Source: Eledone cirrhosa
Taxonomy: Eukaryota
Length of the DNA stretch: 64,000 nucleotides
Assembly: GCA_964016885.1 (NCBI GenBank)
Contig: OZ024740.1
Location: 162,936,001 to 163,000,000, forward strand
Reading direction: 5' to 3'
Shown one piece after another: positions 17,917 through 19,920 of the stretch (positions within the stretch are counted from its first letter, which is position 1; the number at the start of each line of letters is the position of its first letter). Made by a program: the position numbers and the translations under genes. A model generated the notes under the pieces. That model was not told where the DNA came from. It worked only from the letters and a program-made list of their open reading frames with translations, and made no database searches.

Positions 17917-18037
<121 letters not shown>

Positions 18038-19362
18038 TATATATATATAGATAATTTAATATATCTACTAACATAAGCGCACAGATGTACGCCAATGCCA
18101 GCAAATACACAGGTTATGTCATAGTACCTAGGTGGTTCGATGCAGGAGAATGCAGAACAATAATATAAAAGACGTAAAATAAGAAAATTTTTTAAAAATT
18201 AACTTACTTACTTAAATTTTCACTCCAACTAATTAGTTTCTGCAATGGGATAAAGACAGTTACGTAATGAACCGTTGAGAATTTCATTGCGTCATCAGGG
18301 AGGTCATTCTCAGCCGAGTCTCCAGGCGATGCGCGGACACTGGCGACTCATATAAAAATAATAATAATTCGGTAAATGGAACAGCTATCGAGGACTGGAT
18401 TCCAGCTACTGAAAATTCTCACTGCCACTGATCATATGGCCGATTCTAAGGAATCAATCACGTGACGCAGAGGCTAGTCAGTAGGAATGGGGTGGTAAGA
18501 TGACAAGCGCCTACTAACACCCCCCAAAAAATTTTTTAGAAGTGGTTTTGGCAGGTTTGCTCGACAAATCAGTGATTTGGAGATAAATATAGATAATTTA
18601 ATATATCTACTAACATAAGCGCACAGATGTACGCCAATGCCAGCAAATACACAGGTTATGTCATAGTACCTAGGTGGTTCGATGCAGAACAATAATATAA
18701 AAGACGTAAAATAAGAAAATAAAAAAAAAAAAAAAAAAAAAAAATTAACTTACTTAAATTTTCACTCCAACTAATTAGTTTCTGCAATGGGATAAAGACA
18801 GTTACGTAATGAACCGTTGAGAATTTCATTGCGTCATCAGGGAGGTCATTCTCAGCCGAGTCTCCAGAAACTAATTAGTTGGAGTGAAAATTTAAGTAAG
18901 TAAGTTAATTTTTTTTTTTAATTTTTTTTAAAAATTTTCTTATTTTACGTCTTTTATATTATTGTTCTGCATTCTCCTGCATCGAACCACCTAGGTACTA
19001 TGACATAACCTGTGTATTTGCTGGCATTGGCGTACATCTGTGCGCTTATGTTAGTAGATATATTAAATTATCTATATTTATCTCCAAATCACTGATTTGT
19101 CGAGCAAACCTGCCAAAACCACTTCTAAAAATTTTTTTTTGGGGGTGTTAGTAGGCGCTTGTCATCTTACCACCCCATTCCTACTGACTAGCCTCTGTGT
19201 CACGTGATTGATTCTTTAGAATCGGCCATATGATCAGTGGCAGTGAGAATTTTCAGTAGCTGGAATCCAGTCCTCGATAGCTGTTCCATTTACCGAATTA
19301 TTATTATTTTTATACGAGTCGCCAGTGTCCGCGCATCGCCTGGAGACTCGGCTGAGAATGAC

Positions 19363-19442
19363 CTCCCTGATGACGCAATGAAATTCTCAACGGTTCATTA
19401 CGTAACTGTCTTTATCCCATTGCAGAAACTAATTAGTTGGAG
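19363..19442 (+). ncRNA. Type I hammerhead ribozyme, family D (long helix II loop, palindromic helix III)
   Basis: CTCC-CTGATGA-C GCAATG [37 nt] CATTGC A-GAAA-CTAATTAG-TT^GGAG. Confidence 0.88.
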
Positions 19443-19650
19443 TGAAAATTTAAGTAAGTTAATTTTTTTTTTTTATTTTTTTTAAAAATTTTCTTATTTT
19501 ACGTCTTTTATATTATTGTTCTGCATTCTCCTGCATCGAACCACCTAGGTACTATGACATAACCTGTGTATTTGCTGGCATTGGCGTACAATTATTTTTT
19601 AATAAGTTTCCAGTGTCCTCGCTTTGCCTGGAAACTTACATGAGAATAGA

Positions 19651-19731
19651 CTTTCCTGACGACGGAATGCTTCTTTATATTATTCTTCGGAAAATATATT
19701 TACTCCATTCCAGAAACTAATTAGTTGGAAG
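19651..19731 (+). ncRNA. Type I hammerhead ribozyme, diverged family D
   Basis: CTTTC-CTGACGA-C GGAATG [loop] CATTCC A-GAAA-CTAATTAG-TT^GGAAG; compensatory change in helix II relative to 19363-19442. Confidence 0.85.
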
Positions 19732-19920
19732 TGATATTTTAGTAAGTAAGTTAATTTTATAATTTTCTTATTTTACGTCTCTTATATTATTGTTCTGCAA
19801 CCCCATGCATTGAACCACACTGTTATTAAGACAAAACCTATATATTTGCTAGCATTGATATGCATCTGTATGTATATATATGTTACTAGATATGAATTCT
19901 TTATTATATATATATATATA

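Follow-up and report, generated by a model that had tools for sequence, protein, structure and literature searches.

The window analysed here, a 64,000-nucleotide stretch of an animal genome of 3.0 Gb in which AT microsatellites abound, contains a cluster of hammerhead ribozyme copies and raises the question of what kind of repeat carries them, how the ribozyme is built and how the repeat spreads. Mapping of the copies revealed that the whole locus is one head-to-head insertion, in which two (AT)n tracts bracket two outward-pointing arms of opposite strand (Table 1). Its right arm joins two families, an arrangement that a template switch from family B RNA to family A RNA would produce. The feature is a non-LTR retrozyme family, large and divided into many subfamilies, whose hammerhead is a variant of the Penelope type. 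On balance, we favour with fair confidence a non-autonomous retrozyme that is likely copied in trans by a Penelope-like reverse transcriptase/endonuclease, its type I hammerhead likely being braced by a GAGAA/UUCUC pseudoknot.

Table 1. Features of the head-to-head insertion, in window coordinates.
Feature	Position	Strand
Left arm of ~1.5 family A units, with its 5′ end at position 18867 and its 3′ end passing into the (AT)n tract 17920-18064	18041..18867	-
Hammerhead copy, spanning CUGAUGA through GUU; predicted cut 18227/18226	18227..18298	-
Hammerhead copy, upstream part lost at the inversion junction	18769..18840	-
Head-to-head junction, 3-nt overlap of the arms	18865..18867	none
Right arm, family A part: begins within a hammerhead (3′ half only, 18867-18880), then one complete unit	18865..19590	+
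Predicted pseudoknot, 5′ strand (UGAGAAU), within the extended helix I, in its internal loop	19353..19359	+
Type I hammerhead (family A), predicted cut 19438/19439	19361..19443	+
Family A hammerhead, helix I	19361-66 / 19439-43	+
Family A hammerhead, core: CUGAUGA, extra C, extra A, GAAA	19367-73, 19374, 19424, 19425-28	+
Family A hammerhead, helix II	19375-80 / 19418-23	+
Predicted pseudoknot, 3′ strand AUUCUCA, on the 5′ side of the helix II internal loop	19383..19389	+
Helix II inner hairpin, ACGGUU / AACUGU	19390..19409	+
Family A hammerhead, palindromic helix III	19427-38	+
Right arm, family B part: member of a second young family, truncated at its 5′ end and with its 3′ end inside (AT)n	19591..19905	+
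Family B hammerhead: GAGAA 19642-46, CUGACGA 19656-62, loop strand UUCUU 19671-75, UUCG hairpin 19676-99, GUU 19724-26	19642..19732	+

A genome-wide search with the core pattern CTGANGAC-N30-60-AGAAACTAATTAGTT returned 10,229 matches (5,544 + 4,685) against 0 for a reversed control, confirming that the hammerhead recognised in the initial annotation is real. The non-coding repeat unit measures 508-571 bp and is present in ~10,000 copies genome-wide, which belong to many subfamilies. Family A units span 542-571 bp, mostly 558-561, and the family B unit 521-525 bp; the ~542-bp periodicity first proposed for the locus thus holds for the minus-strand pair (18782 to 18240 = 542) but not for the plus strand, where the spacing is 558. 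What had been taken for a diverged copy is not a decayed family A unit but a member of the young family B, whose best 40 scored matches elsewhere in the genome are 99-100% identical. Variants of the repeat also appear in three contig sets from sequencing runs, including a G>A change at 19644. Five metagenome matches, none with helices I and II, were taken as chance.

Within the fetched loci 350 copies were found and 251 distinct ones kept; the 233 with intact upstream sequence fell into 46 clusters, 23 of them multi-member. Seventy of the 251 sampled copies run directly into a next unit, forming arrays of up to five or six units. The longest ATG-initiated ORF in 32 natural dimers comprises 84 aa, and predicted folds of unit-length circles beat their shuffles in all eight units folded (z −2.2 to −8.0; 12 shuffles each). 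Tandem units, one type I hammerhead in each and the lack of coding capacity characterise a non-LTR retrozyme. Relaxing helix III in the search additionally recovered family D (L199-L218), an older relative that is 85-97% alike and has the same ribozyme plan, with a GUA triplet, extra bases C/A or U/G, and helices I, II and III that differ from those of the main families. One locus (L031-L033; G000:C28:45835400-45856000) is a locally amplified higher-order array whose blocks each hold one to five family A units together with flanking DNA.

Further repeats occur in the same window. Two inverted arrays at 49097-52036, arranged head-to-head, contain 3.9 and 5.6 copies of a 310-bp unit and are 99% alike; each unit has a CUGAAGA...GAAAC hammerhead-like core, constituting a second, smaller retrozyme-like family. 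More hammerhead-like cores lie at 31380-31660 and 47480-47600, with a single hairpin at 31520-31555 carrying CUGA(U/G)GA on both strands. The segment 17255-17360, with A and B box-like motifs, resembles what we take to be the head of a tRNA-derived SINE.

The available text of the reports on non-LTR (metazoan) retrozymes (PMC7229834; bioRxiv 10.64898/2026.07.22.740005) describes the same combination: non-coding units of low GC content lie in tandem, each with a single type I hammerhead, are scattered as monomers to multimers, have a stable predicted circular fold and co-occur with Penelope-like elements. The unit length found here lies above the 150-450 bp given in the former and within the 51-972 bp given in the latter, as far as their accessible sections state. 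The Penelope-type core and bipartite helix II of the present family differ from the canonical 4-bp helix II in those sections. The available text of the preprint also argues that animal retrozymes derive from Penelope-like elements, and that of PMC7229834 shows circular RNA expression for retrozymes of other animals. Our literature searches found no paper on this repeat family.

The ribozyme has a CUGANGA, GAAA and NUH core and three helices closing in helix I, the layout of a type I hammerhead, and it folds at −18.9 kcal/mol when constrained to that structure against −20.1 kcal/mol unconstrained. Its core reads CUGANGA-C-G...C-A-GAAAC. In 232 of 233 copies an extra C after CUGANGA stands opposite an extra A that precedes GAAA, and for most of these copies the sampling patterns demanded the extra A; helix II consequently does not join A9 and G12 directly. 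These extra bases, like the head-to-head layout, go beyond the initial annotation. The extra nucleotide after A9, the G10.1-C11.1 pair, the long helix II and the palindromic helix III correspond to the Penelope-type consensus; the extra purine before GAAA departs from that consensus as set out in the accessible part of PMC4209133, and literature searches found no description of it. In the available portion of Perreault 2011, the corresponding place is occupied by a U-U mismatch.

Helix I consists of 5-6 bp followed by an internal loop and a distal helix, which is 96% paired and shows no two-sided change. Helix II (6 bp) is paired in 1,376 of 1,398 cells, and its second pair occurs as all four Watson-Crick types, being 100% paired with a two-sided change in 17 of 25 representatives; pairs 5-6, which the MAFFT alignment mis-registers, were counted by anchor instead. 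This strong covariation upholds the earlier assignment of helix II to GCAATG/CATTGC and to GGAATG 19664-69 / CATTCC 19706-11, and the GUU triplets reported for the two copies were found at 19436-38 and 19724-26, GUU being the cleavage triplet of the main families. The long loop II described previously is not a single loop: beyond helix II, most of the 23 multi-copy representatives that were folded form a pyrimidine-rich internal loop and a sequence-variable inner hairpin, often UUCG-capped. Helix III is a 12-nt palindrome, so that cleavage as a dimer would be possible, as the accessible text of PMC4209133 describes. An Rfam search of the locus gave no hammerhead match at the gathering threshold, nor at E up to 10. 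Hammerhead-like motifs with an extra A before GAAA, lacking the pseudoknot loop, were also seen at L179, L185 and L297 (near 326, minus strand).

The minimal hammerheads of metazoan Penelope-like elements, as presented in the available part of PMC4209133, share the arrangement CUGANGAH-G...C-GAAAN-palindrome-NUH, the palindromic helix III, a long helix II, a 5-6 bp helix I and the extra nucleotide between 9 and 10.1. The ribozyme described here differs in its 3-bp helix III, in the extra purine that separates C11.1 from GAAA, in the internal loop and inner hairpin of helix II, and in having an extended helix I with a predicted pseudoknot. The sections at hand describe minimal Penelope-like hammerheads as being without tertiary contacts (PMC6155905) and their in vitro rates as low (PMC4209133).

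Pairing between the purine tract upstream of the ribozyme and the helix II internal loop is predicted to brace the ribozyme as a GAGAA/UUCUC pseudoknot, and we regard this as probable. Five core pairs are paired in 121 of 125 cells across 25 representatives. The variable pair is G-C in 20 representatives, A-U in three and G-U in two; genome-wide it is G-C in 8,815 copies, A-U in 711, G-U in 284 (a count inflated by TTTTCTC registers) and A-C in 81, the latter dispersed over many subfamilies except for one local array. It is the only pseudoknot pair with a two-sided change, from G-C to A-U, in two subfamilies. A tree built from 68 upstream segments that exclude the ribozyme (≤3 per cluster; copies with truncated or microsatellite-containing flanks excluded) placed the two as sisters (99/97), indicating that the 711 A-U copies represent a single two-sided event. 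Loop mismatches at the neighbouring pair number 39 in total, with no expanded family. A second two-sided change, in subfamily C, was dropped, being readable as a one-sided wobble or a register shift.

Family D retains TGAGAAA / TTTCTCA despite its other helices (the core GAGAAA and TTTCTC in most of the ~25 copies listed). The initial annotation's four strands, including GAGAATA at 19642-48 and TATTCTT at 19681-87, were all located; the last of these sits in the inner hairpin, and the homologue of ATTCTCA in the family B copy is TTCTT 19671-75. As an isolated duplex the TATTCTT register is the more stable in this one copy (−4.0 versus −2.9 kcal/mol for the homologous one), but that strand is paired in the predicted fold and unconserved across subfamilies. 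The G-C to A-U change, the few A-C copies and the retention in family D thus lend the pseudoknot moderate support, although the second-copy covariation first adduced for it used a non-homologous register. In the corrected register it is plausible and partly supported.

Such a contact is of a known type, since the available text of PMC3088659 predicts stem I-stem II Watson-Crick pseudoknots in ~40% of hammerheads of all three types; the same text reports compensatory rescue for one in a type II hammerhead. In contrast to what the wording of that paper describes, the pseudoknot here is predicted to connect one internal loop with another, in a type I ribozyme that is eukaryotic and high-copy. By analogy with Perreault 2011, it may supply the tertiary contact between helix I and helix II.

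Analysis of copy ends pointed to Penelope-like mobilisation. Setting aside the copies that read into a next unit and two without context, 179 of the 251 are terminal, and 168 of these stop at one of two internal sites, located ~60-80 nt and 170-195 nt beyond the cut, where (AT)n usually follows; the sample of terminal copies demands an intact ribozyme, and about ten copies were assigned to one site although they belong to the other. The cut site itself was rejected as a normal 3′ end: 236 matches have a non-G after GUU, and among the 100 listed about five diverge there, the rest being point mutants. In 40 of 45 loci with both orientations the arrangement is head-to-head (overlapping loci counted separately). 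Two internal 3′ ends (the tail), inverted 5′-truncated arms and (AT)n targets, together with a CUGANGAH-G core, are hallmarks of Penelope-like elements according to the accessible text of PMC8557442 and PMC4209133. The Poseidon element PAc of the green anole, in the portion of PMC11167929 available, likewise has two internal reverse transcription starts downstream of its hammerhead, AT-rich targets and extension on both DNA strands. PAc is autonomous, and its tail is 30-40 bp, versus ~110-130 here; its starts are not homologous to the target, whereas the ends found here are rich in TA and blend into (AT)n.

Near-intact, young Penelope-like ORFs are numerous in the genome. An autonomous element sharing the unit was absent from 60 loci around two Penelope-like queries, where all that came up was insertions in the neighbourhood and brief, low-scoring matches. 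Some copies have Hydra-like ORFs nearby, but (AT)n lies in between and the ORFs have no sequence in common with the unit. Likewise, in a non-exhaustive search of the sampled loci, no unit flanks an ORF with reverse transcriptase plus GIY-YIG. No linked ORF having been found, the data favour a non-autonomous retrozyme. The earlier proposal of a larger retrozyme-like or pLTR family is sustained by the tandem non-coding units, Penelope-type ends and head-to-head insertions.

Several Penelope-like sequences were recorded alongside. Window segments 26919-27188 and 41757-43552 are fragments of a Penelope-like reverse transcriptase/endonuclease ORF. A 709-aa open frame without a Pfam match (L037:6591-8717) is presumably Hydra-like, judging by its motifs. 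Near-intact Penelope-like elements with ORFs of 703-987 aa (L284-L300), which we assume from their motifs to be Neptune-like, carry a textbook minimal hammerhead, sometimes twice, ~4.7 kb apart. A young family with a 796-aa ORF (L302, L303), found with a query that has a weak GIY-YIG match, gave no hammerhead with the descriptor.

An unexpected pattern emerged at the 5′ ends. In the GGAGUG families, junctions fall exactly at the predicted cut in at least 45 rows among the 100 listed of 117 matches, representing 39 loci; the set comprises GGAGUG-type copies in which the post-cut segment is preceded by C or A, counted by eye. Control positions gave 10 of 62 at −3, 10 of 58 at −6 and 11 of 33 at +3, all fully listed and with all three wrong bases allowed, +3 with a narrower anchor. 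Twenty of the 39 loci were fetched, a selection that includes all fold-backs, and in all twenty an arm begins at the cut. Fourteen are fold-backs in which both arms begin there (in two of them the first base carries a point change), the spacer being 0-1 nt in 12 and the 3′ ends often unequal; L238-L241 are single arms that start at the cut right after (AT)n or unique DNA.

The excess did not recur in the GGAAGUG clade (B, C, G), with 2 of 15 at the cut versus 4 of 16 at −3, and one fold-back of this clade begins at the cut. Among 219 mapped 5′ ends only one lies exactly at the cut, the bin 0-19 holding 17, the highest of 29 bins. Cut-site junctions are a small minority of copies, implying that most templates span the cut site. 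At L243, copies without the whole catalytic part have the upstream GAGAA tract joined to the first post-cut base. The simplest reading of the fold-backs is that two cDNAs on opposite target strands ran off a self-cleaved 5′ end; reverse transcriptase stalling at a re-ligated junction would likewise imply cutting. The junction excess suggests that the RNA of some subfamilies self-cleaves in living cells. No report of such a signature was found in our literature search.

Three other explanations deserve weighing. The same retrozyme might lack a functional pseudoknot, the purine tract instead extending helix I through the U-rich strand, switching partners or forming a triple helix, with UUCUC kept for another contact. 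The tract can indeed pair with the opposite strand of helix I (82.6% paired), with two-sided changes at two pairs, among them U-A to A-U in subfamily C, and the pseudoknot has only a single independent two-sided event. In family D the tract also pairs in a local upstream hairpin, which wins the minimum-energy fold. The outer pseudoknot pair of family B is often G-U or a G-A mismatch (TTCTAT in 10 of 315 instances), and the 3′ strand of the loop, UUUA, for which no partner was found, is equally conserved, so that conservation by itself is no proof of pairing. Yet without a pseudoknot the G-to-A change would need no change in the loop, and C-to-U accompanies it (711 copies versus 81); the pseudoknot duplex is moreover stronger than the helix I extension in nine of ten representatives, with a tie in one, and in family D, where that extension is absent, the values are −7.3 and −0.1 kcal/mol. 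We consider a pseudoknot-free ribozyme unlikely, while granting it some plausibility. It is less probable still that the units are orphan pseudo-LTRs left by 5′-truncated insertions of an autonomous Penelope-like element rather than a self-standing retrozyme. The Penelope-like ends, targets, inverted arms and core would suit such an origin, as would the abundance of near-intact Penelope-like ORFs. Against it stand the 70 copies that continue into a next unit and their arrays, the failure of any sampled copy to extend into a common ORF, and the different, minimal hammerhead of the sampled autonomous Neptune-like elements.

Similarly, the cut-site excess might stem from reverse transcriptase stalling at the three-way junction, from CTCC microhomology or from deletion at the centre of a DNA palindrome, in which case the ribozyme could be nearly inactive in vivo. 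The B clade without an excess, CTCC microhomology at a few junctions (e.g., L242) and a +3 control that is not empty are compatible with these origins. They account poorly for both arms beginning at the identical nucleotide in 14 loci, 12 of them with almost no spacer and many with unequal 3′ ends; palindrome deletion cannot produce the single arms after (AT)n or unique DNA, and the B-clade fold-back begins at the cut as well. An origin independent of cleavage is accordingly improbable in our estimation.

For the favoured reading, a trans-mobilised non-autonomous retrozyme, we infer the following mechanism from the observed unit, copy number, subfamily covariation, ends and layout. Tandem units would be transcribed, and the hammerhead would cut after GUU, either as a monomer or as a dimer via its palindromic helix III. 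Pairing of 5-7 bp that links the internal loop of helix I to that of helix II would keep these helices parallel, replacing the usual non-canonical loop contact. Since nearly all copies cross the cut site, the templates would mostly be uncut multimers or re-ligated circles. The enzyme would nick both strands of an (AT)n target and prime two cDNAs at the internal UA-rich sites that lie ~60-80 nt or 170-195 nt beyond the cut; these cDNAs would then be fused head to head. Where a cut linear RNA served as template, the cDNA would stop at the cut, generating the excess of 5′ junctions there.

The junction peak addresses the question of whether Penelope-like and retrozyme hammerheads cut in vivo during transposition. 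In PAc, the one purified Penelope-like system, insertion did not depend on cleavage, and none of the reads terminated at the cut, according to the available text of PMC11167929. It is possible, though we would put it a little short of an even chance, that a Penelope-type hammerhead has regained a tertiary brace through a Watson-Crick kiss of two internal loops, tolerates an extra pyrimidine-purine pair by its core, and has left a record of germ-line cutting in the genome as fold-backs with both cDNAs stopping at the cut. If only the retrozyme part holds, this is an ordinary large retrozyme family. If the full reading is true, twin priming would be the source of Penelope-type inverted insertions, and DNA by itself would suffice to rank subfamilies by their cleavage in vivo. 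The ~10,000 copies offer a natural mutational series for a hammerhead architecture missed by Rfam. Of greatest value is the evidence, confined to some subfamilies, that points indirectly to cleavage in vivo: a peak of insertion junctions at the cut would serve as a DNA-only readout of cutting during transposition, repeatable in any genome with such repeats.
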